NCBI GenBank assembly: GCA_002238805.1
Contig: MPNB01000003.1
Location: 6,407 to 70,406, forward strand
From: Rhodothermaceae bacterium bin80
Lineage (GTDB): Bacteria; Bacteroidota; Rhodothermia; Rhodothermales; Bin80
DNA length: 64,000 bases
Reading direction: 5' to 3'
Shown: positions 6,801-20,073 of the stretch, in pieces
Layout of the letters: each line of letters begins with the position of its first letter
Position numbering within the stretch: the first letter of the stretch is position 1
Program-made: the position numbers and the translations under genes
Notes under the pieces: generated by a model
The model's input: only the letters and a program-made list of their open reading frames with translations
The model's database searches: none
What the model was told of the DNA's origin: nothing

Positions 6801-7270
6801 AGGTCCGTTGTTCCAGGCGTACGATTCTTCGCGTAGAATTCAGGTTCAGGTCGCAATAAAACTGGAACAAGCAAAAGGGGGAGATCAGAACGTATCTGAA
6901 TTCTAGTGCGGATAGTTATGATGATTGTACTGTACACGAATGTAAACGAGACCTAAAATGCGAAGGTTGGGCCTATTATGCTGTTTCAATGAAGCTGGCG
7001 ATGAGTTTGCTGGCATTGCGACGAAGGAGAATATGAAATACTTGAAAGAACAGGGACTGGACTGCTGTGGCGTGTTCCAAAGCCCCTCCGGTGCACCATG
7101 TCGCAGAGGAAGCAGCTAGTGGCTACGAACATGCTTGTGGCGATGAACGCCTCCCAGTTCGTGGTCGCCACGACTGCCAGCACGATAAACAGCAGGGCGG
7201 CGAGGATAATGACGATTCGCATGGGGTAACCCTTTGGGGCTATGGAAGGTTGTGCGGATCGGCCAGGGCA

Positions 7271-7402
7271 TCAACTCCGTAGAGCAGAGCAGGCCGAGTG
7301 TGTTGAGCGCGCTGATGTCGCGCTCATCGACGTGGAAGCATTGCCCCGCTCGATCTTGCTGATGGTGAACTGACTCGTGCCGACATGCTCATCAAGCTCA
7401 CA
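7271..7402 (-). pseudogene. remnant of an XRE-type helix-turn-helix gene
   Basis: The reverse-strand translation reads ...LDEHVGTSQFTISKIERGNAS..., which fits the XRE HTH recognition-helix pattern. The reading is bounded by TAG upstream and TGA downstream with no start codon. A plausible continuation (HVDERDISALNTLGLL) lies in another frame. Confidence 0.3.
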
Positions 7403-7532
7403 CTATTTCCACCCACGAGTAAGGGGGTGTCGCATTCCGGGCGCCTTGCCGTTTGATGGCGACGGACCTCCTTGGGCGGCGAGTTTGCGGCCTTAGAATA
7501 TCGTCCGTGGGCGGAGCGGCCAAAGACGGCCG

Positions 7533-7904
7533 CTAGCTCGAACCCGACCCGAGTTCGATGTGTACGTTATACCAGGTGAAACGCTGGCCACTGGCGTCAA
7601 GCGTGACCTCCTTAGTCTCGTCCGGTTCGAGGGAGGTGCGGGGCGTCGGCCCTAGCTCCTTACCGCTCGACAGGTGGATTTCGACCCGCACATTGGTGAC
7701 CGTGCTCGCAGTGGTGTTGTGGATCGTGCCGATGAATTTTTGCATGCCCGCGTTGTAGCTCAGCGTGAGGTCCACGCCGCTGCGCGTCTCCATCGCCGTC
7801 TCGTCCATATTATAGCGTGTGCCGCTCTCACCGGGTTCCGAGGCGCTGTCGCAGGCGCCTGCCAGCAGGACGAGCAGCAGCGATGCAAGGTGTAATCGTT
7901 TAAT
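7533..7904 (-). CDS. hypothetical lipoprotein, paralog A (no canonical start codon for its signal peptide)
   Basis: The listed ORF starts at Met 7808, but the frame is open upstream to 7913. There it encodes (I)KRLHLASLLLVLLAGAC, a lipobox signal peptide. The only start-like codon is ATT at 7904, preceded by AGGA. The mature part is paralogous to 7930..8394. Confidence 0.5.
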   Translation of the reverse strand: MKRLHLASLLLVLLAGACDSASEPGESGTRYNMDETAMETRSGVDLTLSYNAGMQKFIGTIHNTTASTVTNVRVEIHLSSGKELGPTPRTSLEPDETKEVTLDASGQRFTWYNVHIELGSGSS

Positions 7905-7929
7905 GGTTGGGTCCTATCTTCCCGCCGGC

Positions 7930-8394
7930 CTAGTCGCAGGCCGACATTTCGGGGTGGGCGGTCCAGTCGCCGACGGTGCTCCCGCCGGTGCTGAGGGTGA
8001 TCGTGCGGGTTTGGCCGGGTTGCATGTCGTTGCGGGGTGTTGGGCCAAGCTCAGGTCCGCCCGCCAAGTGGACCTCCACTCGCACCGCACAGATAGTCGA
8101 GTCCGTAGTGTTGGTCACCGATCCGACGAACTGGTCCGTGCTCGCATCGTAGTGGAGCTGCAGGCGTACGCCGCGCCGCTCGGCATCCCAGTGCTCGGTG
8201 CGGCCGATGTACGTGCCGCCCTCCTCCCCCTCGGCCCCCTCGGCATGGCCCTCGCCGCTTTCACCGGCGTGTTCGCCCTCGCCCTCGACGGAAGGTTGCC
8301 GCATGGTGTCGTTCCCAGTGCCGTTGGTGCCGCATGCAACGATGGCGAGGGCCAGCACGATTGTGACTACTGCCTTCCAAGGAATGCTTCTCAT
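7930..8394 (-). CDS. hypothetical lipoprotein, paralog B, with an acidic His/Glu/Gly-rich linker
   Basis: The signal peptide MRSIPWKAVVTIVLALAIVAC is followed by the linker EGEGEHAGESGEGHAEGAEGEEGG. The C-terminal domain FVGSVTNTTDSTICAVRVEVHLAGGPELGPTPR aligns with FIGTIHNTTASTVTNVRVEIHLSSGKELGPTPR of paralog A. Confidence 0.6.
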   Translation of the reverse strand: MRSIPWKAVVTIVLALAIVACGTNGTGNDTMRQPSVEGEGEHAGESGEGHAEGAEGEEGGTYIGRTEHWDAERRGVRLQLHYDASTDQFVGSVTNTTDSTICAVRVEVHLAGGPELGPTPRNDMQPGQTRTITLSTGGSTVGDWTAHPEMSACD

Positions 8395-8772
8395 ATCTCC
8401 TACTGTCTGTTCTTAGTTGGTTGGAGACGCGTTGGATGGGTAACTCAAGAAACGTCCCCTGTATACCCCGGTGGGACCGTAAAGTTTCATCCAGAACCGG
8501 GGTTGGACGCAGGGAGTGCTATCGCCGCCCCCCACTCCTTTGTCCAGTTACGGCCCTGATCGTACCTCCATTTCGGCCAACATGCAAGGGATAAACTGGG
8601 GATTACAAAGCAGGTCTAGGTTTTCAAGCTCTCGCGATTTTGGTGATAACACTTCGGAACGAGACTGTCTCCAGTGGGGCTAACTACATTCAAGAATCAC
8701 GTATTGCGTTACAGGGACGCTACGTAATACTGAAATTCACCTACAAACCGAGGCTGATGTAGTATTGTCGGT

Positions 8773-9321
8773 GGCGCGTGGTTGTTCTATCACGGGACAC
8801 AAGGGAATTCACTGCGATTCGGCAGCATCATTGAGCGGACTCACCCTTACCTGATGCGGGCAAAGCCTGATCCAGTGCATTCGTATCGCTGTATTTGGAG
8901 GGGCACTTCATGAGGATATGTTCGGCTTCGAACACCCCTCCATTCAGGTATCCCTCTACGACGATCTTTTCGGCATCTTCGAAACTCGCCGGTTTTGGGT
9001 CCCGGTAATGCACTTCGCGTACCGCTTCCTCGTTATCCCGCAGGTGGAACCTGAAAAGGTTTTTTTCGGGGTTGTAGTGCGCCGTCTCGGACTGCACCCA
9101 GTTACCAACGACATGAGCGCGTGTCCCGGACGCTTCGGCTTCAGAAAAATGCATATATGCCCCCACCTAGTCTCCGAAACTGAAGAGAAGCAGGGATGCA
9201 AAGCCCACCAGGGCAATCAGACTGATAATGGTGCGAGGTTTGCGCATGATTAAGTCAGTGGTCAACTCTGATCAATCGGTGGATTTTTTTCGCTGAGCAG
9301 GGCTTTCACGGAGGATTCCAG
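8773..9321. repeat. direct repeat copy 1 (degenerate ccmD 3' end plus ccmE)
   Basis: Aligns base for base with 16807..17355 at a constant offset of 8034 and with no indels. I counted about 38 mismatches over the roughly 500 nt I compared by eye, which is about 92% identity. Confidence 0.9.
8828..9265 (-). pseudogene. ccmE: ccmE pseudogene (in-frame TAG at codon 33)
   Basis: It is colinear with the intact ccmE at 16862..17299. Codon 33 is TAG (9167..9169) where the intact copy has CAA (Gln). This cuts off the N-terminal membrane anchor. The ORF track shows only the 112-aa distal piece. Confidence 0.8.
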
Positions 9322-9597
9322 ACGAGTCGGTCCAACAGGGCATCCGCAATCGTAGGATTGGCCATGTTTTTGATATTACTTGGGGACTGGGAAAAAGATG
9401 AGAGAGCGGAGGGAATTGTCAAGGCGATGGGAAATCATAAGACACCGTGGGCCATTTCGACGTTTTCTTCCAGTTCGCAATGCTATCGCTCACAGCCGTC
9501 TTTTGGGTCGCGCTGATCTACTGACGGAGTATCCTATTATATCAGGCTAGCAAATGGTCCTGTCTCGCCCACAGTTATGTATGACCGGTAAGATATT

Positions 9598-10395
9598 TCA
9601 AAAATCCTTCCTTTTGAATTTCCAGACACTCGCTATCAGTGGTACGGTCACCCAAACCACCAGTCCCGCTATGGCAGTTATCACACCTCCCAAGCTACCA
9701 AAAAACTGCTCGAATACTGCACCCGTGTAGCCCATCAGGGCCGACGCTTCAAGGTTCAATAGCAGCAAAACACGAGCGAGATCAATCGGGTTGAGTATCA
9801 TCAACGCGAGCATCGGTTTTTCCAGGGGATAATTCGCAAAAACACTTACGATCACGAGCACCAACCCATCGTAGACCACAGAGAAAAAGATCCAGAGTAG
9901 AACCGATACGCTCAGGCCTCGAAGTCTGTCCTCAAACCGCAGCGCAATGAAAAAAGCCAGGGCGACAAATATGAACGTCAGCAATACGCCAGATCCGGTC
10001 ATGAGTAGTGCCGCCGTCATGTGCGTATCAACCAGCCCACCGCGAAGTACGATCGGAATTCCAGCTCCGATAAGAAAAGATCCCGACAACGGCAATGTTA
10101 GCCCGGCAAACAGTCCGTAAAAAAGAATCGCCCGGTTTACTGGCTGTGCTAGGAGTAATTCAGTAAATGGCCGTGCATTGTAGAGATATATCGTACCAAA
10201 CACGATGCTGACGAGTGGGATAATCACCAGTACAATGCTTGACAGACCAAGCAATGCCTTAGCGCCACTGCCCGTAAAGCGAAATAGTGCTTCCGTCGTG
10301 ACTAGAAAAAACAGTGCATACAGCAGTGTCCATCGGCTTCGAAAAATATCTCGCCACTCATACTTGATGACCTTCGCTACCGCCCTCAAGTTCAT
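9598..10395 (-). CDS. nosY: nitrous-oxide reductase maturation ABC-2 permease NosY
   Basis: The 265-aa six-TM ABC-2-type permease lies immediately downstream of the NosF-like ATPase in a nosZ cluster. Confidence 0.8.
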   Translation of the reverse strand: MNLRAVAKVIKYEWRDIFRSRWTLLYALFFLVTTEALFRFTGSGAKALLGLSSIVLVIIPLVSIVFGTIYLYNARPFTELLLAQPVNRAILFYGLFAGLTLPLSGSFLIGAGIPIVLRGGLVDTHMTAALLMTGSGVLLTFIFVALAFFIALRFEDRLRGLSVSVLLWIFFSVVYDGLVLVIVSVFANYPLEKPMLALMILNPIDLARVLLLLNLEASALMGYTGAVFEQFFGSLGGVITAIAGLVVWVTVPLIASVWKFKRKDF

Positions 10396-10398
10396 TCT

Positions 10399-11109
10399 TT
10401 AGTCCTTTGTACCAACTATGATTTGGGCAATGGCACGTTCGAGCTTGTCCTCTCCAGTGCTATTCTTGATGTCGACTGCTGAGCCAGCAATACTCACACG
10501 CCCATTCACCAGGAAGGCTAGGTCATCAGCCAATTCCTCGATTTCGCTCATAATATGCGAAGTTAGGACGATGGTCTTTCCGTCATCCCGCTCCCGCATG
10601 ATCCAATCCTTAAGCAAACTGCCTGCGACCGGATCAAGGCCCGCCGTAGGTTCGTCTAGAAAGAGTACATCCGGGTCGAATAAAAAGGCCAGGATGGCAT
10701 TGATCTTCTGGCGTGTCCCTCCTGAAAGGGTGCCGAGCGGTTTGTCCAATTCGGAATCAAGCTGAAAAGCCTCGCATAGTCGTTCACCTTTGGCTCCTGG
10801 CTGATCTCGCAATTCTTTCAGCAACATCAAAATTTCACGGGCTTTCAGGTGATCAGGGAAGCGCGCGATCTGCGGCATGTAGCCAATGTGCCTGCGATAG
10901 TCCCATGCCCCGTCAAGTGGCTTGCCGTCAAATATTATCGTCCCAGCCTGTTGCCGCGTGAGTCCCAGGATACACTTGATCAGGGTCGTCTTCCCGGATG
11001 CGTTCGGACCGACAACTGCAGTGACTCTCTTTCGCTTTATTTGCAGATCTATTTTGTCCAGTACGTTGAGTTGCCCGAAGGACTTCACCAGGCCTACAAT
11101 CTCAATCAT
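10399..11109 (-). CDS. nosF: ABC transporter ATP-binding protein NosF
   Basis: Has Walker A GPNASGKTT, signature LSGGTRQK and Walker B LFLDEPTAGLD. It sits between nosD and nosY. Confidence 0.85.
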   Translation of the reverse strand: MIEIVGLVKSFGQLNVLDKIDLQIKRKRVTAVVGPNASGKTTLIKCILGLTRQQAGTIIFDGKPLDGAWDYRRHIGYMPQIARFPDHLKAREILMLLKELRDQPGAKGERLCEAFQLDSELDKPLGTLSGGTRQKINAILAFLFDPDVLFLDEPTAGLDPVAGSLLKDWIMRERDDGKTIVLTSHIMSEIEELADDLAFLVNGRVSIAGSAVDIKNSTGEDKLERAIAQIIVGTKD

Positions 11110-11191
11110 AGCTCTGATTTTGTGTGGACAGAGTGGTGAGCATCACTGACAGAGACATCTGTAAAGCACTGCTCCGAAGCAAGTAAACCCA

Positions 11192-12448
11192 TCACAATCG
11201 TACCATTACCGGCATTTCGTCAGCCAGCGTATCGGGTGTTAACGAAGGCAGGGTGTGCTCTACAGCGTCAAGCACTTGAATGAACAGACTTCGCAACAAT
11301 AGGATAGATGTCTCCGTTCGCTCAACAATCAGTGAAAAGAGGCGCACGGGATGGAAAGGAATGTCACCGTATCCGTCACGGTCAAGGTCGTAGCCCTGGT
11401 AGGCATCCCAATGATTCTTTGAAAACCGGCTGGAATGGTGCCGGCTGTTGGTTGCCACATCGAAGGTGTTATCAATGAAGTTATTATGTGTGAACCAATT
11501 GTCCTGGGCGTTTGCCATAATCTTGACAGCCCAGCCATTTTCGATGAAGTCATTGTGTTCAAACACATTGCGGTTGGCGCCTTCTGCGTATATGCCGATC
11601 GTATTCTTGACAAAGACATTATCATCAATGATACTGTCCGTAATATCCTTGAGCAGGAGCCCGAAGACTGCGCTACCCCAGTTGTGTTCAAATCTGTTGC
11701 CTACCATTTCTACGTTTTCAGAGTACATTACAGCAACCCCGGCATCGTTTGCGCGAAAGACATTGCTATGGTAGGTGCATCGGTCCGAAAACATGAAATG
11801 CAACCCGTAGCGGAGGTTGGATTCGCTTATGTTATCAATTACTGCACTGTCCTCCACGAATTCGAAATAAATGCCGTCGCGGTGTCCTCGAATCTCATTG
11901 CTAACGATTTCGATCTCCTTCGAATACCAAAGATGGATACCATTCCCTGAGCGAGTTTCCGTCAAGCCGGATCCTTGAATCGTGTTGCCGGACAAGCGAC
12001 AGAAACTAGTTCTGGCCAAGTAGATCCCAAAATAGGCGTCGATGATGCGGTTATCTTCAACTCGGCAAAAAGCTGCTCCGTCTATCTTGAGTGCCGCGCG
12101 ATCCTCAACGAAAGTCACCCCTACGTTGCGGAACTCCAGGCCCTGAATCGTTACGCTGTCAGCCACTACGGTCATGATCTGGTTCTCTCCTTTCCCGTCC
12201 AACACAGGGAAATCTTTCCCGATGATCGTGACGGCCTTGTCTACCAGAATCGTCGGCTCATTATAAACGCCCTTCAAGACTAGAATCGAATCACCCGGTT
12301 GAGCTTGGCGGATTGCTGCGCCGATGCTGTGCAAAGGGCCTTCGGAGGAGACCACCACATGCTGTCCGAGCGCACCGGTAACTGTAACTGACGCGACAAG
12401 CAGTGCGAGTAATCGGCTCAATCTTCTAGCGCACAAGACGCGGTGCAT
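11192..12448 (-). CDS. nosD: periplasmic copper-binding beta-helix protein NosD
   Basis: Has a signal peptide and repeated parallel beta-helix units (NxIxxNxxGIYL / GIHLWYS / GLHFMFS). Its position between nosL and nosF fits NosD. Confidence 0.9.
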   Translation of the reverse strand: MHRVLCARRLSRLLALLVASVTVTGALGQHVVVSSEGPLHSIGAAIRQAQPGDSILVLKGVYNEPTILVDKAVTIIGKDFPVLDGKGENQIMTVVADSVTIQGLEFRNVGVTFVEDRAALKIDGAAFCRVEDNRIIDAYFGIYLARTSFCRLSGNTIQGSGLTETRSGNGIHLWYSKEIEIVSNEIRGHRDGIYFEFVEDSAVIDNISESNLRYGLHFMFSDRCTYHSNVFRANDAGVAVMYSENVEMVGNRFEHNWGSAVFGLLLKDITDSIIDDNVFVKNTIGIYAEGANRNVFEHNDFIENGWAVKIMANAQDNWFTHNNFIDNTFDVATNSRHHSSRFSKNHWDAYQGYDLDRDGYGDIPFHPVRLFSLIVERTETSILLLRSLFIQVLDAVEHTLPSLTPDTLADEMPVMVRL

Positions 12449-12463
12449 TGCTATCCCCTAACA

Positions 12464-12952
12464 TTACGGCTGCATTGATTCGAGCAGGTGCATGGACCTA
12501 TCTCCAGACATGCTGACCCGCACAAGACTGTCTACGCCTTGCCAGTCCAGAATTTCGCCGAAAAAGGAATGCTGTACAGCTTGTTGAGTGATTCCAGGAC
12601 CAAATGCTGTCAGGTTCATGCCCATAGGGCTGGGAAGATCTCGGCTGTGCAGAAAGAAAGCCTCGTCCACTGGAATCAACTGGGGTGGGTTTTCATAATC
12701 AACCACCCATAAAGAGTGAATGTGATCCGGTAACAGATCGGCGGTCGCCAGATGGGACGCCAGACATTCGACAGAGTCAAAGGTGAAAAATTTTCCCTTT
12801 GATGTAATAAGTTCCGCACCGTATTGCTCATCCGAAAGCGTCATTTTGCAATAGGCACACCGGTCGTGACCATGGTCTAATGGTTGCGGCTCAAGCGCAC
12901 AGCCTGCAAGCACAACCAGCATGAATCCCAGAATAACTACCCGTTTACTCAT
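12464..12952 (-). CDS. nosL: copper chaperone lipoprotein NosL
   Basis: Has the lipobox MSKRVVILGFMLVVLAGC and the motif CAYCKM...GKFFTFDSVECL typical of NosL. I chose the start at Met10 (12952) of the listed ORF, which overlaps the upstream gene stop by 8 nt. Confidence 0.85.
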   Translation of the reverse strand: MSKRVVILGFMLVVLAGCALEPQPLDHGHDRCAYCKMTLSDEQYGAELITSKGKFFTFDSVECLASHLATADLLPDHIHSLWVVDYENPPQLIPVDEAFFLHSRDLPSPMGMNLTAFGPGITQQAVQHSFFGEILDWQGVDSLVRVSMSGDRSMHLLESMQP

Positions 12953-13571
12953 GTGGTCGGGGATCACTATGGATGCCATTTTTCTGACTGCGGGCAGATG
13001 CGCTGGTCCTGATTTGGGAAATCAATAGTACAATACCGGTGAGCAATGACGAAAATGCAATCCAACCGCCTAGTGCAGGCCAAGAGTGGGCCGTAAAATT
13101 GAGGAGCTTCTTCGTGCCGATGAACGGTGGCTGGTAATGCATCCCAGGAATCTTGATGGCTGCAGTTGGATCAAGATTATGCCCGTAGTCATATTCCCAA
13201 AGATGGAAGTCAATGAGTCCAGCGACGGTACATGTAAGGAATAGCCCAACCCATATACCTAACATAACGGGTTTGCCCGTTGCGGCAGCGACGAGTCCAA
13301 GACCGATCAGGAATGCGATGACCCATGGTATCACTTTCAGTTCCGTAATCGTTTCGGGCGTGATGGCCTTCATCCCGATATAATGATTCAGGCCGTTGAT
13401 GTTCTGCAGGTCGTGGGGCTTCTGACCAGTGATCTGGTTGATCCAGATATACATCCCGATCCCTTCCGGGTACTGTGGTGCTTCCAGCGAGATACTCCAT
13501 ATTGGCGCGACATACGCGACTAAAAGTGCAAGTGATGCAACAGCAAGGGTTATTCTGTAGAGCGAAGTCAT
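12945..13571 (-). CDS. nos-cluster integral membrane protein (NosB-like)
   Basis: The 208-aa protein has about four hydrophobic segments and lies between nosZ and nosL, as in atypical (clade II) nos clusters. No catalytic motif is recognisable. Confidence 0.55.
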   Translation of the reverse strand: MTSLYRITLAVASLALLVAYVAPIWSISLEAPQYPEGIGMYIWINQITGQKPHDLQNINGLNHYIGMKAITPETITELKVIPWVIAFLIGLGLVAAATGKPVMLGIWVGLFLTCTVAGLIDFHLWEYDYGHNLDPTAAIKIPGMHYQPPFIGTKKLLNFTAHSWPALGGWIAFSSLLTGIVLLISQIRTSASARSQKNGIHSDPRPHE

Positions 13572-13790
13572 GTCTGCACGCGTTCACGATTATGATAGTA
13601 CATCGGACGAAGTGATCCGTCAGCGAGAATTATCCCTCCAGAACACATAATCATGCAGACTTGGTCGTGGTGGTACGATCAGTCATGAAGACCATGAGCG
13701 CAGGGCAGTTTTGTAGCGCATGGGGTCTCACATGAATCAGACCATTGAATGTATGAGGCAGGCGCACACGGTTGTGTCGCAGCCACATCA

Positions 13791-15773
13791 TCAATTGCCC
13801 GTGGCATAGCTCAGCGGTACGTCCGATCCCCTCGGCGAAACGCGGACGTAACCCTGCATTTCCTGATGCAGTGCCGAACAAAAGTCCGTGCAGTAGAAAG
13901 GATATACTCCCTCTCCTCGCGGTGTCCACTTTAATGTGCGCGTTTCCCCGGGCATGATCAGCAGTTCTGAATTGTTCGCCCCTATAATTGCAAATCCATG
14001 CGGGACATCCCAGTCCTGCTCCAGATTTGTAACATGGAAGAATACTTCATCACCCACCTGCACGCCTTCGATATTGTCCGGTGCAAAATGGGTACGGATG
14101 GATGTCATGTAAACATGCACCGTATTGCCATCGCGTTCAACGCGCGTTTGAGCTTCGCTCTTGGTAGCAAAGGGATGCTCATTCTCCTCAATGGGAAAAA
14201 ACTGGACTTGGTTATCCATGATCAATTCAGCCGGTAATGCCTGCGCATAGTGTGGTTCGCCCATTGTTGGGAAGTCCAGCAACATCCGCATCTTATCCCC
14301 GCTGATGTCTATGAGTTGTGCGGCATGGGCCAGTTCCGGGCCAGTCGGCAGATAGCGATCTTTGGTGATCTTGTTCATTGCGACAAGATACTTGCCCCAG
14401 GGATTCTGGCTATCACCGCCTGGAATCATCAGATGACCAACGCTATAGAACACGGGGATGCGATCCACGACATCCCAAGGCTCTGCTACCCGCCATTTTA
14501 CGATCTCTGATGAAATGAAGGCAGTCGTATAGGCAAATCCCTGTCCGTCAAATTCCGTATGGAGCGGCCCCAGCCCCGGATTCTCAACCTCGCCGGCAAT
14601 GATGGCTTCATACTGAAGTACGGGAATTCCCTCTATTGTGGTCTCGTAAGCTTCGTCGGCGATGGCTTGCATCATCTTGTCAAACGAATGAACCGGGATC
14701 ACGGTGGCCAGCTTGCCTCCGGCAACGATATACTGACCTGTGGGGTCCACATCAACACCGTGGGGCGATTTCGGCGTCGGTAAGTAATAGACCATTTGAT
14801 CGCAGTCGGCAGCCTCAAGAACCGTTACACTCGTCTTCTCCGTGGAGACCGCTGATTGTGTGGCCCGGTCCATATGATTATGGAAATAGCGGGTATCCAT
14901 TTGACGGGCGTTGCCATCAGCGACGCATTGCTCTGCACGTTGCCAGTTGACTGCAGCAATGAAGTCTTTGTCATTCTGCGAGGCATTGACCTCCAACAGC
15001 GTGTGGGCCTCTTCCGAGTTGTATGAAGTGAAGAACATCCAGCCGAAGGACGGTCCCTTTCCAGCGTGTGCCAGATCATAGTTGAATCCCGGCACTAAAA
15101 TCTGGAATGCCACATCCATTTCTCCTGGGGTGTTCGCATGGATGAAGGAAAGTGAGCCTCTGAAATTGCCAGCATAGTCACTTATTGCCATGTCCCGCTG
15201 CGGAATCGGTATACTGAAGCGTGTGGAAGCGACAAGGTATTCGGAATTGGGCGTAATAAAGGGAGAGCCGTGATTGCCTGCAGAATTTGGGATCTCAATG
15301 ATCTCCTCGGTTGCAAAAGTCGTCAAGTCAACCCGCGCGACACGGGGCGTATTATTGGCATTGATAAATATCCAGCGTCCGTCCGGTACGCCATCTGTCA
15401 TAGACAGTTCAGGATGATGAGCGTCGTCCCACGGTACGAAGCCATATGAGGTATTAAGCATGGGGCGCGTTTCTTCCGTGTACCCCCATCCATTCTCTGG
15501 GAACTGTGAAAAAACGGGGACATCTTTCAGATGACGTCCAGAAGGTAAGCCATAAACCGTCAGGTTGCCGCTGAATCCTCCAGAAAAGAACGAGTAGAAT
15601 TCATCATACTCACCCGGAGGTACGTAAACTTGTCTAGCCGCATCATCGCTAAAGCCGTCCCGCAAGCCCGGATTTTGGCAGGCAAAGAAAAACATTCCGG
15701 ATAACAAGAGGAGGAGGCCACAGCCGGCCAAGAATCGATTGGTCAGGATCGATAACATCGTGTTAGGCTTCAT
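13791..15773 (-). CDS. nosZ: nitrous-oxide reductase NosZ, atypical/clade II type with a Sec/lipoprotein-type signal
   Basis: The C-terminal CuA motif is CTDFCSALHQEMQGY. It has a large His-containing seven-bladed-propeller-type N-domain. The N-terminus MKPNTMLSILTNRFLAGCGLLLLLSGMFFFAC has no twin-arginine motif. Confidence 0.95.
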   Translation of the reverse strand: MKPNTMLSILTNRFLAGCGLLLLLSGMFFFACQNPGLRDGFSDDAARQVYVPPGEYDEFYSFFSGGFSGNLTVYGLPSGRHLKDVPVFSQFPENGWGYTEETRPMLNTSYGFVPWDDAHHPELSMTDGVPDGRWIFINANNTPRVARVDLTTFATEEIIEIPNSAGNHGSPFITPNSEYLVASTRFSIPIPQRDMAISDYAGNFRGSLSFIHANTPGEMDVAFQILVPGFNYDLAHAGKGPSFGWMFFTSYNSEEAHTLLEVNASQNDKDFIAAVNWQRAEQCVADGNARQMDTRYFHNHMDRATQSAVSTEKTSVTVLEAADCDQMVYYLPTPKSPHGVDVDPTGQYIVAGGKLATVIPVHSFDKMMQAIADEAYETTIEGIPVLQYEAIIAGEVENPGLGPLHTEFDGQGFAYTTAFISSEIVKWRVAEPWDVVDRIPVFYSVGHLMIPGGDSQNPWGKYLVAMNKITKDRYLPTGPELAHAAQLIDISGDKMRMLLDFPTMGEPHYAQALPAELIMDNQVQFFPIEENEHPFATKSEAQTRVERDGNTVHVYMTSIRTHFAPDNIEGVQVGDEVFFHVTNLEQDWDVPHGFAIIGANNSELLIMPGETRTLKWTPRGEGVYPFYCTDFCSALHQEMQGYVRVSPRGSDVPLSYATGN

Positions 15774-15804
15774 GTTTTAGTGGTTGCAGGAAAATTGCGT
15801 ACGA

Positions 15805-16281
15805 TTACTGAATCACATCAGCAGCATCAGTTTGACTGCTGCGCAGAAACTCAAGTACTGACCGCGCATCGGCTTCAGTCAGGTTTTGGTTAGGCATTGG
15901 AGTGAAGTACTCCGCCAACATGTCCTGTCCCGCAGGATGTTTTTTTGCCATTTCGTCTGGATTCAGCATCATGTTCATAATGAACTCAGGGCTCCGTCGG
16001 TCCAGCACTTGTCCCAATGGCGGCCCTACATAACGTACGTCCAGCTTATGGCAGGCGGCGCACTTGGTCGCAAATATTGCCTGGCCTTGAGAGACTAGTG
16101 AGGTGTCAATGGTTGCGTCCAGTTCAAGCTCGTCAATAGGTCCGATTCCGTGTTCAAGTTCTGTCCGGGATAGCATGTCTGTTTGTTGTTGCGGCTGTGT
16201 ATCGCCCGGTGCACGATCTCCTCCGTCGGCACACGCTGTTAAGCCGATTAGTATTAACACGCAACCATTGAAGATTCTCAT
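15805..16281 (-). CDS. c-type cytochrome lipoprotein associated with nosZ
   Basis: Has the haem motif CAACH and a distal Met region (MMLNPDEM). The lipobox signal MRIFNGCVLILIGLTAC starts at the ATG at 16281. The listed ORF start at 16311 lies inside the upstream repeat unit. Confidence 0.8.
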   Translation of the reverse strand: MRIFNGCVLILIGLTACADGGDRAPGDTQPQQQTDMLSRTELEHGIGPIDELELDATIDTSLVSQGQAIFATKCAACHKLDVRYVGPPLGQVLDRRSPEFIMNMMLNPDEMAKKHPAGQDMLAEYFTPMPNQNLTEADARSVLEFLRSSQTDAADVIQ

Positions 16282-16458
16282 AGTGGTATTAGGCATTTCG
16301 TCCGTCGGCACACGCTGTTAAACCGATTAGTATTAACACGTAACCATTGAAGACGCTCATAGTGGTATTAGGCATTTCCTCCGTCGGCACACGCTGTTAA
16401 ACCGATCAGTATTAACACGCAACCATTGAAGACGCTCATAGTGATGTTAGATATTTCG
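16222..16458. repeat. three abutting tandem copies of a 79-bp unit covering the 5' end of the cytochrome c gene
   Basis: Units lie at 16222..16300, 16301..16379 and 16380..16458. They differ at about 5 to 7 positions each, and the first bases of a fourth unit follow at 16459. Each unit contains an ATG plus a lipobox signal peptide. Confidence 0.9.
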
Positions 16459-16505
16459 TCCGTATTTTGTTCCCGTCACGGAATAACGGATTTAGCAGTT
16501 TGATT

Positions 16506-16727
16506 CTACCGCGAGTGTTGTGGGTAGAGGTTTAGATCTCCGCGGAAAAAAAGAATTACAGATCTGAAGTTTTCAAATTTTCTGTACCCTCTGCCGATAG
16601 TTTTGACCCCCTGGATCCTCCCATCAACTCGTTCCGATCTGGCGTTGGATTGTTCACGGCAATGTGCATTACCCACGCCTGTGAGATATCGTTCAAACAT
16701 CTCAGCTACTTTCATGATCTCCATCAC
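16506..16727 (-). mobile_element. C-terminal remnant of a transposase (ISL3-like motif)
   Basis: The 73-aa ORF ends in SNARSERVDGRIQGVKTIGRGYRKFENFRSVILFF. This matches the C-terminal pattern (T/S)N-x3-E-x2-N-x2-I-x3-K/R-x3-G(F/Y)R-x-F-x-NFR-x2-IL that I associate with ISL3-family transposases. No catalytic domain is present. Confidence 0.45.
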
Positions 16728-16806
16728 GGACGCTTCTTTCCAGAAGTTACCTTCTTATTCAATTACTCTGGAGTGAGATTTCCCCCGATAATTGAGACGT
16801 TTGGGG

Positions 16807-17355
16807 GGCGCGTGGTTATTCTATCACGGGACGCAAGGAAGTTCACTGTGGTTCGGCAGCTTCACTGAGCGGAATCGTCCTCACCTGATGTGGGTAAAGC
16901 CTGATCCAGTGCACTCGTAGCGTTGTATTTGGAGGGGCACTTCATGAGAATATGTTCGGCTTCGAACACCCCTCCATTCAGGTATCCTTCTACGACGATC
17001 TTTTCGGCATCTTCGAAGCTCGCCGGTTTTGGGTTCCAGTAATGCACTTCGCGTACTGCTCCCTCGTTATCCCGTAGGTGGAACTTGAAAAGGTTTTTTT
17101 CGGGGTCGTAGTGCGCCGTCTCGGACTGTACCCAGCTGCCAACGACATGCGCGCGTGTACCGGATGCTTCGGCTTCAGAAAAATGCATATACACCCCCAC
17201 TTGGTCCCCAAAACTGAAGAGAAGCAGGGATGCAAAGCCCACCAGGGCAATCAGACTGATAATGGTGCGAGGTTTGCGCATGATTAAGTCAGTAGTCAAC
17301 TCTGATCAACCGGTGGATTTTTTTCACTGAGTAGGGTTTTCACGGAGGATTCCAG
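16807..17355. repeat. direct repeat copy 2 (intact ccmE plus ccmD 3' end)
   Basis: This is the partner of 8773..9321 at offset 8034. Confidence 0.9.
16862..17299 (-). CDS. ccmE: cytochrome c maturation haem chaperone CcmE, CxxxY variant
   Basis: Has an N-terminal anchor IISLIALVGFASLLLF and an OB-fold-like body (VVGSWV...VVEGYLNGGVFEAEHILMKCPSKY). Cys sits where canonical CcmE has the haem-binding His. The TTG start overlaps the ccmD stop; an alternative ATG lies at 17281. Confidence 0.8.
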   Translation of the reverse strand: MTTDLIMRKPRTIISLIALVGFASLLLFSFGDQVGVYMHFSEAEASGTRAHVVGSWVQSETAHYDPEKNLFKFHLRDNEGAVREVHYWNPKPASFEDAEKIVVEGYLNGGVFEAEHILMKCPSKYNATSALDQALPTSGEDDSAQ

Positions 17356-17502
17356 TCGATCAATCTTTCGATCTGTGGCATAGATGAACATAGTGATCCC
17401 AATCCAGATGATAAGTACAACGGCAAGAACAACCATCAGTTTGTCGTTGTCCAACATAACGGTCTCAATGCTACCGGCTGCTTGTATTAACAGGGTGATC
17501 AT
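17296..17502 (-). CDS. ccmD: small membrane protein, CcmD-like
   Basis: The 68-aa protein has a single TM segment (LMVVLAVVLIIWIGITMFIY). It lies between ccmC and ccmE with 4-nt overlaps on both sides. Confidence 0.6.
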   Translation of the reverse strand: MITLLIQAAGSIETVMLDNDKLMVVLAVVLIIWIGITMFIYATDRKIDRLESSVKTLLSEKNPPVDQS

Positions 17503-18221
17503 GTTTTTGTTTGGAGATGCTCGTCTTCCTCAATGTTTTGCAGCGTCATTACAGCACGGGCCAGTCTGACACGTTGGGTGTAGAGTAGCCAGCCAACGCC
17601 TATGAATCCAAGGACTGCAGGGTAAAAGATTACCCGCATGATTGGATCCGTGATTTCGCTGAAGGCGGGGTTGCCCTCTGCACCAGGGTGCAGGCTCTCT
17701 AATTGACGCGGAAGCACATAAAGCAGGAAGGGTACGGTTACAAAGGCAAATATATTGTACACAGCAGAGATGCGAGCCCGCTTGCGGGGATCATCCAGTG
17801 CACTTCTAAGGGCAAAATACGCGCAATAAATCAACACCTGAACAGCAGCCATTGATTGCTTGGGATCAAAATTCCACCAGATATTCGTGCCCTCATACCA
17901 AGTGTAATGCGCCCAAACACTACCTGTAGTAAGACCTAGTATGCCGAATATTACCGCAATCAGCGCTGCGATACGGGATCTGATATCACTGACAGGATTA
18001 TTCGTTCGGAGACACTGGATAGCATGTATTGCCGAAAGGGCGGTCAGCGCCATCATGGTGAACCACATGGGAACATGAAAATACAGGTTCCGGGCGGTGT
18101 GCTCCAGCATCGCCAATTTTGGAATGTTCAGCCACACACCGCCAAAAGAAAATGCTCCCAACAGTACGAGCGTCATCCAGACGATAATTGCAAGGCGTAT
18201 TGTCTTGTATTTGCAGGGCAT
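17499..18221 (-). CDS. ccmC: haem exporter protein CcmC
   Basis: It is polytopic with a Trp-rich motif (WAHYTWYEGTNIWWNFDPKQ) comparable to the WGxxWxWD haem-handling motif. Confidence 0.8.
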   Translation of the reverse strand: MPCKYKTIRLAIIVWMTLVLLGAFSFGGVWLNIPKLAMLEHTARNLYFHVPMWFTMMALTALSAIHAIQCLRTNNPVSDIRSRIAALIAVIFGILGLTTGSVWAHYTWYEGTNIWWNFDPKQSMAAVQVLIYCAYFALRSALDDPRKRARISAVYNIFAFVTVPFLLYVLPRQLESLHPGAEGNPAFSEITDPIMRVIFYPAVLGFIGVGWLLYTQRVRLARAVMTLQNIEEDEHLQTKT

Positions 18222-18238
18222 TAGGGTGGAAGACTTTG

Positions 18239-18943
18239 TTAGTCCTGCCAGACGTAGTCAAACAATAGGACGGATGCAGTGATCACGACGCCGGAAAAAC
18301 TAGTTATAATGAGTAAGGATCCAGAGGATGCAGCCCAACCGCCTTCGGTAAATGATTGACCAACAAAACTGAAGTATGTAGACTCAACAGCTGCGAGCAG
18401 AAGGGGGACCAAAAGCGGAAACAACAATACGGGCAAGAGAATCCCGCTCCGTGTTGTTCTCGCAATGATAGCAGCTAACAGCGTCGTTGCCCCCGCAAGC
18501 CCCAATGTACCCAGAAGAAGTGTTAGTATAAATAAGCTTGGCAAGGCAACCTCCACGCCCAGTAGCAGCAGGAATATGCATGCTGAAACGGCATTCGCAC
18601 ACAGGATCGTAAGAAAACTGTAACACAGTTTCCCGGCGTAGACCATGGTGGCCTGCGCATGTATCCGCAAAAAGAGTCCGGTTTTCTGCTCTTTTTCAGA
18701 CAGGAATGCCCGTCCTAGGCCCAGGGCTGCCGTGAAGAGTATCACAATCCAGAGCAATGCTGCCTCTGTTCGTGGTTCAAGGTCACCTCTGCCTGCTGTG
18801 ACCAAGATCAGGAACATTGTGTTCAGGACAAAAATGAGCAGCATACCCAAGACGGATTTGTTACGCAGTTCCAGTTGGAGATCCTTGCGTAGCACTGCTA
18901 TAGCTCCGTTTGTCCAACTTGAGGATTTCCTGGAAGCCATCAT
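18239..18943 (-). CDS. ccmB: haem exporter permease CcmB
   Basis: The 234-aa six-TM protein lies upstream of ccmC. Its start overlaps the murB stop by 4 nt. Confidence 0.75.
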   Translation of the reverse strand: MMASRKSSSWTNGAIAVLRKDLQLELRNKSVLGMLLIFVLNTMFLILVTAGRGDLEPRTEAALLWIVILFTAALGLGRAFLSEKEQKTGLFLRIHAQATMVYAGKLCYSFLTILCANAVSACIFLLLLGVEVALPSLFILTLLLGTLGLAGATTLLAAIIARTTRSGILLPVLLFPLLVPLLLAAVESTYFSFVGQSFTEGGWAASSGSLLIITSFSGVVITASVLLFDYVWQD

Positions 18944-19953
18944 GCTTTACGGCGTGCAGCCAGCTCTTCGGCCGTAATCAGTCCGGCCGGGCGCGGTAGA
19001 AACACGGGTGATCCACCGGTTGGCGGATCAAATTCACCGACAAAATCAATTTCAGTTTCCAGATGGTAGCCCGTCTGCGTAGCTACCTCCTTCTGAACGT
19101 AGGCTACCAGTGCCTGTAAATCTGCGGCCGTACCTTCTCCCTGATTGATCATGATATTAGCATGGCGATGCGTAATTACAATGCCTCCAAAACTTGCACC
19201 TTTAAGTCCACATTCATCGATCAGGCGTCCGGCTCCGATGCCTTGGATCTTCTTAAAGATAGACCCGACGCTGGGTTCAGTATCCAATGGAGGATGCCTC
19301 AGGGCGCGCCAGGCAAGGTTTTCGGTCATTACTTTGCGCAGATCTACCTCCTGTGCAGGTGTAAGCCGGAAGGTGGCACGCAGCACAATGTCATTTCGCC
19401 GATGCAGGACTGAGTAATCGTATCCAAACTCAAAGTAATCCACATCTACACGCTGAAGATCGTTCTCCGCGGTTATGAGATCTGCATGTTCAAGAACTTC
19501 CTCAATAAACATGGTTCGCTCTCGAGCCGGAGCTGGGGAGAGAAAGTGAAGGTTCTGCCAGAGTGCACCCCCCACAGTCGAGGGGATGCCAACGTAGTGT
19601 TCCAACCCGGACAGTGAACGAGCGACAGATGCCTCAATCAGGTCGGGATACACAATGGTGCCACTTTCCGCGGTAACTTGGTTGCCGTCAAATTCAATGT
19701 TTTGAGCAGCATTGTAGATAACGACACCGCGGAAACCGGCATCTCCTATGATCACGTTAGCTCCGCAGCCTAACAGGAAGTGGGGGAGATCAAGTTCACG
19801 CACGGTTTTGATTGCGTGCGCGAGTGCGCCAGCACTTGTAACCTCGACAAAAAGATCGGCCGGACCTCCCAGTTGCATCGTTGTGTACGGTGCCAGTACA
19901 ACGTTCTCCTGAACGGAGCCTGTACCAAGAAGATTTTCAAGCGCTCGTTTCAT
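18940..19953 (-). CDS. murB: UDP-N-acetylenolpyruvoylglucosamine reductase
   Basis: Has an FAD-binding domain (APYTTMQLGGPADLFVEV, LLGCGANVI) and the C-terminal MurB motif GSIFKK/GGIVITHRHANIMIN. I chose the start at MKRALENL (19953). The listed ORF extends to 19992. Confidence 0.9.
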   Translation of the reverse strand: MKRALENLLGTGSVQENVVLAPYTTMQLGGPADLFVEVTSAGALAHAIKTVRELDLPHFLLGCGANVIIGDAGFRGVVIYNAAQNIEFDGNQVTAESGTIVYPDLIEASVARSLSGLEHYVGIPSTVGGALWQNLHFLSPAPARERTMFIEEVLEHADLITAENDLQRVDVDYFEFGYDYSVLHRRNDIVLRATFRLTPAQEVDLRKVMTENLAWRALRHPPLDTEPSVGSIFKKIQGIGAGRLIDECGLKGASFGGIVITHRHANIMINQGEGTAADLQALVAYVQKEVATQTGYHLETEIDFVGEFDPPTGGSPVFLPRPAGLITAEELAARRKA

Positions 19954-20073
19954 ACGCAGTAATAAAACGTTTGAACGTGCAACTTGCAACAAAGCAGATC
20001 GTTGACTACGTTTCTACTGTGGAGATCGGCGTATCTCACATACCACACTACAACTATAACCTGGACAGAGGAA

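Follow-up and report, generated by a model that had tools for sequence, protein, structure and literature searches.

A nitrous oxide reductase module gained beside the ccm operon of an uncultured Rhodothermales bacterium, with a foreign-type ccmE at the operon junction

The ccmE repeats at the locus

The window (the whole stretch of 64,000 nucleotides that was analysed) carries a cytochrome c maturation (ccm) operon with a nitrous oxide reductase (nos) cluster directly downstream, and all genes of this region lie on the minus strand. Two direct copies of a 549-bp segment bracket the cluster, a proximal one (P) that is joined to ccmBCD and a distal one (D):

17296..19992, minus strand: resident murB-ccmB-ccmC-ccmD, 98.8% identical to the relative L089
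16807..17355, minus strand: P, with the final 19 ccmD codons, an intact ccmE and 55 nt downstream
16862-17281, minus strand: the intact ccmE in P, 139 aa
9322..16806, minus strand: segment of 7485 bp made up of two spacers and the nos module; L089, L001, L090 and L088 lack it at their empty sites
8773..9321, minus strand: D, now a pseudogene, with the ccmD tail and ccmE allele of the resident

A repeat search and a fixed-offset comparison align 8773-9321 with 16807-17355 at an offset of 8034, ungapped and with 505 of 549 positions matching (92.0%). Extension to 8770-9321 gives 507/552 matches, and beyond the repeat limits the matches at this offset fall to about 25%, the chance level. The initial annotation had described the same offset, an identity of ~92% without indels, copies carrying the last ccmD codons plus all of ccmE, and a proximal copy that is intact beside a decayed distal one, and each of these points is borne out. 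Both copies hold 19 ccmD codons, a complete ccmE and 55 nt past the ccmE stop. The ccmE of D is interrupted by a single in-frame TAG at 9167-9169 and has no indels. The longest block identical between P and D is 83 nt (repeat positions 63-145), and the TAG, at position 153, lies downstream of it.

The nos module and its surroundings

The DNA between the repeats contains the nos genes and fragments of insertion sequences:

16509..16754, minus strand: C-terminal fragment of an ISL3-family transposase (PF01610, E=5.9e-9, profile positions 180-240 of 240), truncated on its 5' side
16216..16463, minus strand: 79-nt tandem unit in ~3.1 copies of 90-92% identity, each with the cytC ATG and a lipoprotein-type signal peptide
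15805..16281, minus strand: cytC, monohaem c-type cytochrome with a CAACH motif and lipoprotein signal, opening the conserved nos module
13791..15773, minus strand: nosZ, 660 aa (Pfam), with a CuA motif and no twin-arginine motif
12945..13571, minus strand: 208-aa membrane protein, conserved in related nos clusters
12464..12979, minus strand: nosL (Pfam)
11192..12448, minus strand: nosD (Pfam)
10399..11109, minus strand: nosF, ABC ATPase (Pfam)
9598..10395, minus strand: nosY, ABC-2 permease (Pfam), where homology to other nos clusters ends (about 9592)
9322..9434, minus strand: tentative candidate for a relic of IstB, the IS21 helper ATPase; it reads ...NPTIADALLDRLV and is cut exactly at the ccmD-tail junction

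The NosZ N-terminus, MKPNTMLSILTNRFLAGCG..., has no RR motif, the CuA motif reads CTDFCSALHQEM, and a nos_propeller domain is present. Its top matches are named 'Sec-dependent nitrous-oxide reductase'. A NosZ without a Tat signal, accompanied by nosL, nosD, nosF, nosY and a cytochrome c, makes this a clade II nos cluster. Compared with the Clade II (Sec-dependent) clusters of Bacteroidota/Rhodothermota, which share the propeller NosZ, the lack of a twin-arginine signal, the adjacent c-type cytochrome and nosLDFY, the genes are ordinary; what is unusual is the location inside the tail of a ccm operon, together with the triplication at the start of cytC. Of the 79-nt units, just the final one shares the reading frame of cytC. 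A reading of the 208-aa ORF and nosL as a frameshift pseudogene was rejected, as nosL has a lipoprotein signal of its own and relatives differ in the split. In some relatives the two are fused in one long gene call.

The closest homologues of nosZ are 93-94% identical and found in other genomic contexts. For the module as a whole the nearest relatives share 77-81% DNA identity, with homology confined to 16267-9592. These relatives lie in four or more other contexts, with transposases adjoining two of them. The nos module is mobile cargo.

The earlier description of seven nos genes plus transposition debris between the copies agrees with the Pfam-supported nos genes and the ISL3 fragment, which also supplies the mobility-gene remnant of a genomic island; the IstB motif is non-significant. 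The IstB-like fragment has no Pfam match, and tblastn against plasmids recovered IstB genes over 15 aa only, at E about 1-3. At the junction 9321/9322, a truncated IS-like reading frame is fused abruptly to mid-ccmD with microhomology of at most 1-2 nt. No tyrosine or serine recombinase lies within or beside the element, all inter-repeat ORFs being nos genes or IS fragments, and no inverted repeats of at least 30 nt occur in 7000-19000. The GC content of 0.47-0.53 across 9300-16800 equals that of the flanks, making the insert indistinguishable from the host, which fits a closely related donor. A promoter and terminator scan of 8600-17600, which does not cover Bacteroidota-type promoters, returned fewer sites than shuffled sequence. 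No flanking direct repeats were found around the nos clusters of the relatives L081, L082 and L085, or around the other ccmC-D-E insertions (L012, L014, L017, L019, L015 and L073).

The empty site and the age of the event

Four close relatives (L089, L001, L090 and L088) carry murB-ccmB-ccmC-ccmD-ccmE followed by the DNA left of 8773, with one 549-bp segment. The initial annotation had proposed insertion of the nos cluster next to the ccm operon and had suggested looking for exactly this arrangement; its presence in four genomes confirms the proposal. In the nearest relatives the order is murB-ccmBCDE, p154 (154 aa), p91 (91 aa), DUF4159 and SHMT. The names p154 and p91 are given here to two small genes of unassigned function. 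In blastn against L001, window positions 22000-16811 and 9325-1 overlap exactly at L001 10863-11411, the single copy at the empty site, which matches both window repeat copies. L089, L090 and L088 give the same overlap pattern. The gained unit is 8034 bp, comprising 7485 bp of new DNA and one repeat copy.

The window is sister to L089 in 5/5 flanking regions tested, at 98.2-98.8% identity. Flank identity to the window is about 95-98% for L001 and L090 and about 84-87% for L002 and L006. The island is hence a presence/absence difference among very close relatives, at a collinear site with flanks 97-99% identical, as in a genomic island. The three closest relatives have no nos module at this locus and are not among the best nosZ matches, and no nosZ occurs within 10 kb of ccm at any of 80 Rhodothermales loci. 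Since L089 is the sister of the window and L001 and L090 branch outside this pair, and since none of the three has the island, the insertion must be younger than ~1.5% divergence. This shows that the 8034-bp unit was gained after the split from L089, the closest relative, in an event younger than 1.2-1.8% divergence. The 8% divergence of the repeats therefore predates the event, and the earlier reading of this divergence as the mark of an old event does not hold. Window alleles are shuffled, being L001/L088-like at 17371-17522, closest to L090 in 7500-8772 and L089-like elsewhere, which shows frequent homologous exchange in the population.

Origin of the two ccmE copies

The two copies differ in their relation to the single copy of the relatives. 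D is 96.4-96.9% identical to that of L001, L089 and L090, while P is 91.8-92.5% identical to the same three and 94% to L088. The outgroup L006 is about 86% identical to both, and this equal distance indicates that P is not simply fast-evolving. P and L089 are separated by a dS of 0.23 at a dN/dS of 0.19, whereas dS inside the species cluster is 0.04-0.05 (0.043-0.054). Divergence from L001 per 150 nt rises from 0-6 differences in ccmBCD to 7-13 inside P. The private change of D is only about 1.4%, similar to the flanks. At the first three of the 44 sites at which P and D differ (positions 19, 24 and 30) it is P that agrees with L089; from position 46 on, D agrees with L089 at 34 sites and the other seven are isolated D-specific changes. 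P is identical to L089 over positions 1-45 and of foreign (donor) type over 46-549. The D alleles at the three left-end sites (G, G and C) also occur in L090 and partly in outgroups.

This distribution of alleles shows that D is the resident ccmE and that P, from position 46, is foreign, having diverged by ~8% as a working orthologue in another, related lineage would. On the same sequence evidence, the ccmE now joined to ccmBCD is the incoming xenologue, and the native ccmE lies displaced 8 kb downstream and bears a nonsense codon. The incoming copy is predicted to be the one that now does the job. The proposal in the initial annotation that the repeat is a duplicate of the genome's own target is contradicted by the ~92% identity of P to every relative, set against 96-97% for D, and by the dS of 0.23 and dN/dS of 0.19 for P. 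Among the relatives, the closest other allele to P is that of L088 (94%), itself an empty site. Protein look-ups found no donor genome, circle or second island host, and all foreign-CcmE contigs (13/13) have the same neighbours.

Route of integration

The favoured reading, at a probability of roughly 0.6, is RecA-type integration through ccmD'-ccmE homology, most simply by a single crossover with a circular donor. Host homologous recombination would have acted across the 549-bp homology, with neither integrase nor transposase. In the simplest form, one reciprocal crossover between a donor circle and the chromosome would have occurred near repeat positions 30-46, and the circle would already have held an illegitimate joint between the IS fragment downstream of nosY and a ccmD tail. 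The outcome would be an intact ccm operon with a c-type cytochrome and N2O reductase directly downstream in the same orientation. A single reciprocal crossover automatically leaves two hybrid direct repeats around the insert. Agreement with L089 along the repeat reads p, p, p and then d from position 46, as in reciprocal hybrids, with a left part of three sites whose alleles also segregate in L090. The three left-end alleles of D could be resident polymorphism rather than donor sequence. Counting against the circle is the position of the apparent crossover, which falls in 15 nt of identity close to the margin of the homologous segment, whereas RecA exchange would be expected in the block of 83 nt.

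Suicide plasmids integrate by single crossover through a cloned homology arm (Campbell-type), and integrase-borne islands and prophages insert in the 3' end of tRNA or protein genes and bring a replacement 3' end. The locus resembles the latter in that a functional replacement is supplied, the host operon stays intact and the native copy is found, displaced, at the island's other end. It differs in having no integrase or excisionase gene and a 549-bp repeat at 92% in place of a short identical att core. Likeness to Campbell-type integration, including the pcp-mediated cfr(C) circle of Campylobacter coli (PMC10770853), extends to arm-length direct repeats, the lack of a site-specific recombinase, repeat copies resembling donor/recipient hybrids and reversibility in principle. 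Here, in contrast, the arm is an 8%-diverged housekeeping orthologue, the cargo is a respiratory cluster, and the circle and its transfer are only inferred. RecA-mediated exchange tolerates divergence of this size (PMC6382021), and in the Campylobacter experiment circular intermediates form and integrate through flanking-gene homology (PMC10770853). The island capture at this locus clearly exemplifies a process that is already known.

Alternative routes

A linear donor fragment (ccmD'tail-ccmE'-nos-IS fragment), taken up for example by transformation, is an unlikely competitor. Its homologous end would lie in ccmDE and its illegitimate end in the recipient ccmD, making P donor and D wholly recipient. 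The abrupt 9321/9322 junction suits such a fragment, as do an exchange point at the very edge of the homology, expected when a fragment is anchored by its end, and the occurrence of the three left-end D alleles in L090. The illegitimate joint would however have to fall upstream of the homologous exchange, duplicating 549 bp instead of deleting. Donor sequence diverged by 8% in P 1-45 should show about 3.6 differences from L089, but 0 are seen; a recipient origin of both P 1-45 and D 1-45 predicts no difference between them, yet three sites differ. Homology-facilitated illegitimate recombination likewise combines one homologous anchor with one illegitimate joint and leaves foreign DNA beside a conserved gene, but it usually deletes recipient DNA rather than duplicating it, and here 549 bp are present twice. 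It is mentioned for natural transformation in PMC6382021. Quite improbable is the import of a ready-made, repeat-flanked island from an island-bearing relative by double crossover in the flanking or repeat homology (allelic replacement). The visible shuffling of alleles in the species cluster would allow it, but no other island-bearing lineage was found among the 80 Rhodothermales ccm loci and 13 foreign-CcmE contigs, and both exchange points would have to hit the same 16-nt repeat interval, which a single reciprocal crossover gives automatically.

The model of the initial annotation, in which the genome's own 549 bp were duplicated and the copies, identical at first, diverged by 8% in place over a long period, and which would require the relatives to have lost the island by repeat recombination, is highly improbable. 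A P x D deletion product would resemble the relatives' single copy, and P and D are similarly distant from outgroups. With the window nested in empty-site genomes (L089 as sister; L001, L090 and L088 outside), however, the island would have to have been lost several times independently, with every crossover in the first 46 nt. D would also have had to stay intact while redundant, because the relatives have a D-type gene as their only ccmE; the private change of D, at only about 1.4%, is close to that of the flanks. P is under purifying selection with a dS 4-5 times the within-cluster value, and no transposase makes target duplications of 549 bp. Transposition with target duplication, the other part of that model, is out: the repeat is 549 bp, there are no inverted ends and no intact transposase but only a fragment, and one copy is foreign (dS 0.23) even though the event postdates the 1.2-1.8% split. 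An assembly chimera, in which two co-occurring strains ~92% identical were joined via shared k-mers in ccmE, is scarcely credible. Every dataset is a metagenome assembly and the 83-nt block is common to both copies, but a stretch of 15,139 bp including both repeat copies is 100% identical in contigs of the JGI samples 3300027327 and 3300002151, and the intact P-type CcmE is read on 13 contigs in protein look-ups. Such identity in contigs from other metagenomes makes an artefact unlikely; the chimera would have to yield 15 kb at 100% identity from different samples and sources, with both novel junctions present in the reads and L089-like DNA on both sides of the island. Assemblers resolve repeats of 92% identity easily, and the earlier argument that 8% divergence speaks against an artefact is supported as regards a collapse.

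Reversal and wider meaning

Integration by RecA-type recombination would leave repeats through which the island could be lost again. Such reversal is possible but disfavoured, because the repeats are only 92% identical and a crossover in the 83-nt block leaves a ccmE bearing the stop. The clean deletion envisaged in the initial annotation is thus supported only in part. A rather improbable extension is an integrase-free, self-targeting island that, bearing a functional version of the operon's conserved 3' end, loops out via its own repeats and uses host recombination to re-insert into the ccmE of any related Rhodothermales, replacing the host ccmE each time. If true, the capacity to reduce N2O would pass from strain to strain at a site that in this clade serves as a hot spot for other cargo as well.

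The locus cautions against taking the divergence of flanking repeats as a measure of insertion age. Xenologous replacement of the housekeeping gene ccmE is seen here as a by-product of island capture. A complete N2O-reductase module is documented here, base by base, as a trait that is strain-specific inside a single species-level cluster of uncultured Rhodothermales, which matters for inferring N2O-sink capacity from taxonomy or MAGs.

Organisation of the repeat and neighbouring genes

With a constant offset of 8034 nt, the segments 8773-9321 and 16807-17355 align without gaps and agree at 505 of 549 positions (92.0%), exactly as described in the initial annotation. In the fixed-offset comparison, identity drops to chance level at once beyond the 549-bp limits. 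Every gene of the nos/ccm region lies on the minus strand, and the order of transcription is as follows.

Gene order of the nos/ccm region, in transcription order
19992-18940, minus strand: murB, the first gene, followed by ccmB and ccmC
17502-17296, minus strand: ccmD, after ccmC
17281-16862, minus strand: intact ccmE (139 aa) of the proximal repeat copy (P), followed by a 550-nt spacer
ending at 9598, minus strand: cytC, nosZ, a 208-aa membrane protein gene, nosL, nosD, nosF and nosY, followed by a 276-nt spacer
9321-8773, minus strand: second ccmD tail and ccmE, forming the distal repeat copy (D)
downstream of D, minus strand: p154 and p91 (small genes, 154 and 91 aa), a DUF4159 gene and SHMT

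The earlier description of P as intact and D as decayed is borne out by the 139-aa ccmE of P and by a single in-frame TAG (9167-9169) in the ccmE of D, which is full length apart from this stop. Neither ccmF nor ccmH adjoins ccmE anywhere within the 64-kb window. Classical CcmE carries the haem-binding motif HxxxY. In the CcmE of the window (16862-17281) and of all relatives the sequence MKCPSKY stands at this place, which presumably makes it a Cys-type variant.

The intact CcmE (P0241, MCY4674399.1) is present on 13 contigs in NCBI, JGI and ENA. Over 15,139 bp, both copies included, the JGI contigs L086 and L087, which come from separate samples (3300027327 and 3300002151), match the window at 100% identity, and so both novel junctions must exist in the reads. 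As the flanks on either side of the island are also of the same strain type, it is very improbable that the two-copy structure is an assembly chimera, in keeping with the initial annotation.

Empty sites in relatives

A CcmC-based scan of GTDB species representatives gave 80 Rhodothermales loci, and in none of the 80 does nosZ lie within 10 kb of ccmC. The empty site that the initial annotation proposed to look for is present in close relatives. L001 (OZ219799.1) aligns with window 22000-16811 and with window 9325-1, and the two alignments have exactly L001 10863-11411 in common, the 549-bp segment. The same empty site, with a single copy of the segment, is found in L089, L090 and L088, relatives located via the CcmE protein cluster. 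The island is therefore an insertion relative to these sites.

The polarity of this event follows from the flanks. The window is nearest to L089 in all five flanking regions (98.2-98.8%), with flank identities of ~95-98% for L001 and L090 and ~84-87% for L002 and L006 on the outgroup side, which nests the window among empty-site genomes. If the empty sites had instead arisen by deletion of the island, this nesting would require several independent losses, whereas a single gain in the lineage of the window explains the data.

Origins of the two copies and route of integration

The two copies differ in origin. Compared with the single copy in L001, L089 and L090, D shows 96.4-96.9% identity and P only 91.8-92.5%; P reaches 94.0% against L088. 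Both are ~86% identical to the outgroup L006, indicating that P is deeper-branching and not merely fast-evolving. Differences from L001 per 150 nt number 0-6 in ccmB-ccmD, 7-13 in P, and 6, 4 and 1 in D. For the ccmE coding part, dS between P and L089 is 0.23 with a dN/dS of 0.19, against a within-cluster dS of 0.043-0.054. P is thus a ccmE that evolved under function in another lineage. This xenologous ccmE now serves the ccm operon, and the native ccmE has been displaced and bears a nonsense mutation. Since P diverged elsewhere, the 8% divergence is older than the insertion, which postdates the split from L089. The initial annotation had taken this divergence as the sign of an old event and the repeats as a duplication of recipient target DNA; the first reading is reversed, and the second is ruled out by the foreign origin of P.

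The distribution of the 44 differences between P and D may locate the exchange. At repeat positions 19, 24 and 30, the three that come first, it is P that agrees with L089; from position 46 onward the agreement with L089 lies with D, at 34 sites. D also has seven isolated private sites, among them the TAG at position 153. Positions 1-45 of P and the adjoining ccmD are of resident type; a donor-type P 1-45 would predict ~3.6 differences from L089, and none is observed. With modest statistical support, this pattern fits a single reciprocal crossover with a circular donor. One exchange between such a circle and the chromosome at repeat positions 30-46, a placement that draws on few sites, would give a P made of the recipient left part and donor right part, and a D made of the donor left part and recipient right part. 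The donor molecule would already have borne an illegitimate joint between an IS fragment and the ccmD tail. Two recipient left ends should be identical (~0.6 differences expected), but three differences are observed. All three left alleles of D also occur in L090 and two of them in outgroups, and thus they may be resident polymorphism. For this reason a linear donor fragment, with one homologous and one illegitimate end, is retained as the main rival. A third option is import of a ready-made island via double crossover.

We infer that the host's homologous recombination carried out the integration, using the 549-bp arm. A divergence of 8% lowers RecA-mediated exchange but stays well inside the range that experiments have shown to be permissive (PMC6382021), and earlier work documents circular intermediates whose formation and integration rely on a copy of a flanking gene (PMC10770853). 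Neither a donor genome nor a circle was found, with the intact CcmE traced on 13 contigs. The island behaves like a Campbell-type integration and resembles integrase-borne islands with a replacement gene end in supplying a gene end. However, it falls outside the classes of transposon insertions and integrase-mediated elements.

Content of the insert

The insert contains no integrase, intact transposase or inverted terminal repeat, and site-specific recombination machinery is absent from it. The spacer adjoining P holds the final ~60 codons of an ISL3 transposase (PF01610, E=5.9e-9). In the spacer adjoining D, a reading frame (...NPTIADALLDRLV) is truncated exactly at the junction and resembles the IS21 IstB C-terminus over 15 aa only, with non-significant E-values. 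Insert and host have the same GC content, which fits a closely related donor.

The nos genes are an ordinary clade II set. DNA homology to the nearest other nos clusters is 77-81% and is confined to the interval between 16267, which lies within the cytC signal peptide, and ~9592 at the nosY end. These clusters lie in at least four settings other than that of the window, never close to ccm; two directly adjoin transposase genes, and a search for flanking repeats around the clusters found none. The varied contexts mark the nos module as mobile cargo in Rhodothermales. The transposase genes beside the closest clusters are of IS4 type (DDE_Tnp_1), IS256 type (Transposase_mut) and rve type (L091 1225-2028; L092 4543-5688 and 19480-21666).

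At 16216-16463 a 79-nt unit is repeated in tandem ~3.1 times with 90-92% identity. The unit takes in the ribosome-binding region, the ATG and the lipoprotein signal peptide of the cytochrome c linked to nos, and as 79 is not a multiple of three, the last copy alone is in frame with the cytochrome gene. The repeat recurs unchanged in L086 and L087, two independent contigs, and is absent from related nos clusters, whose homology begins at 16267. In the window, the 208-aa membrane protein gene (12945-13571) and nosL (12464-12979) overlap by ~35 nt in different frames. A single gene call of 352-375 aa covers both in several relatives (L082 12266-13384; L092 12107-13234; L085 12229-13287). Since nosL carries its own lipobox, these are probably separate genes that share a frame in some genomes.

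The ccm operon tail in relatives

Downstream of D, a 1.7-kb stretch (~6925-8654) reaches 60-65% GC where its surroundings have ~50%, and codes for two small paralogues of 154 aa (7930-8394) and 91 aa (7533-7808), neither with a Pfam match above threshold. The stretch is present in L001, L089 and L090 and absent from L088 and L002-L007, where DUF4159 directly follows ccmE. It is an older insertion ~120 nt from the repeat end, which makes two hits at one spot.

In other Rhodothermales, unrelated cargo interrupts or follows ccmC-ccmD-ccmE (L012 and L014 10900-12650; L017 10690-14390; L019 10700-12900; L016 8060-10200; L015 10900-13600). Examples include an AAA_15/AAA_21+DUF3696 ATPase, a 974-aa protein without Pfam match, a GmrSD nuclease, a Type ISP restriction enzyme fragment, and a T2SSE-type ATPase with a response regulator. 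No direct repeats flank these cargoes. The tail of the ccm operon seems to be a hot spot for repeated integration in the clade. The closest relative of the window also shifts along the locus, being L001/L088-like at the ccmD/ccmC end (17371-17522), L090-like in p154-p91 (7500-8772) and L089-like elsewhere, which indicates frequent homologous exchange inside the species cluster.

Reversibility and significance

The initial annotation expected recombination between the copies to delete the island cleanly, which holds in part. The longest perfectly matching block spans 83 nt (positions 63-145), followed by blocks of 38, 29, 26 and 25 nt. The TAG comes only after the 83-nt block, so the likeliest deletion would leave a stop-bearing ccmE, and a working gene would be restored only via exchange in the short blocks downstream of the TAG. 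The nonsense mutation may hence help lock the island in place. The island is a well-resolved natural example that bears on the ecology of N2O reduction and on the dating of islands.
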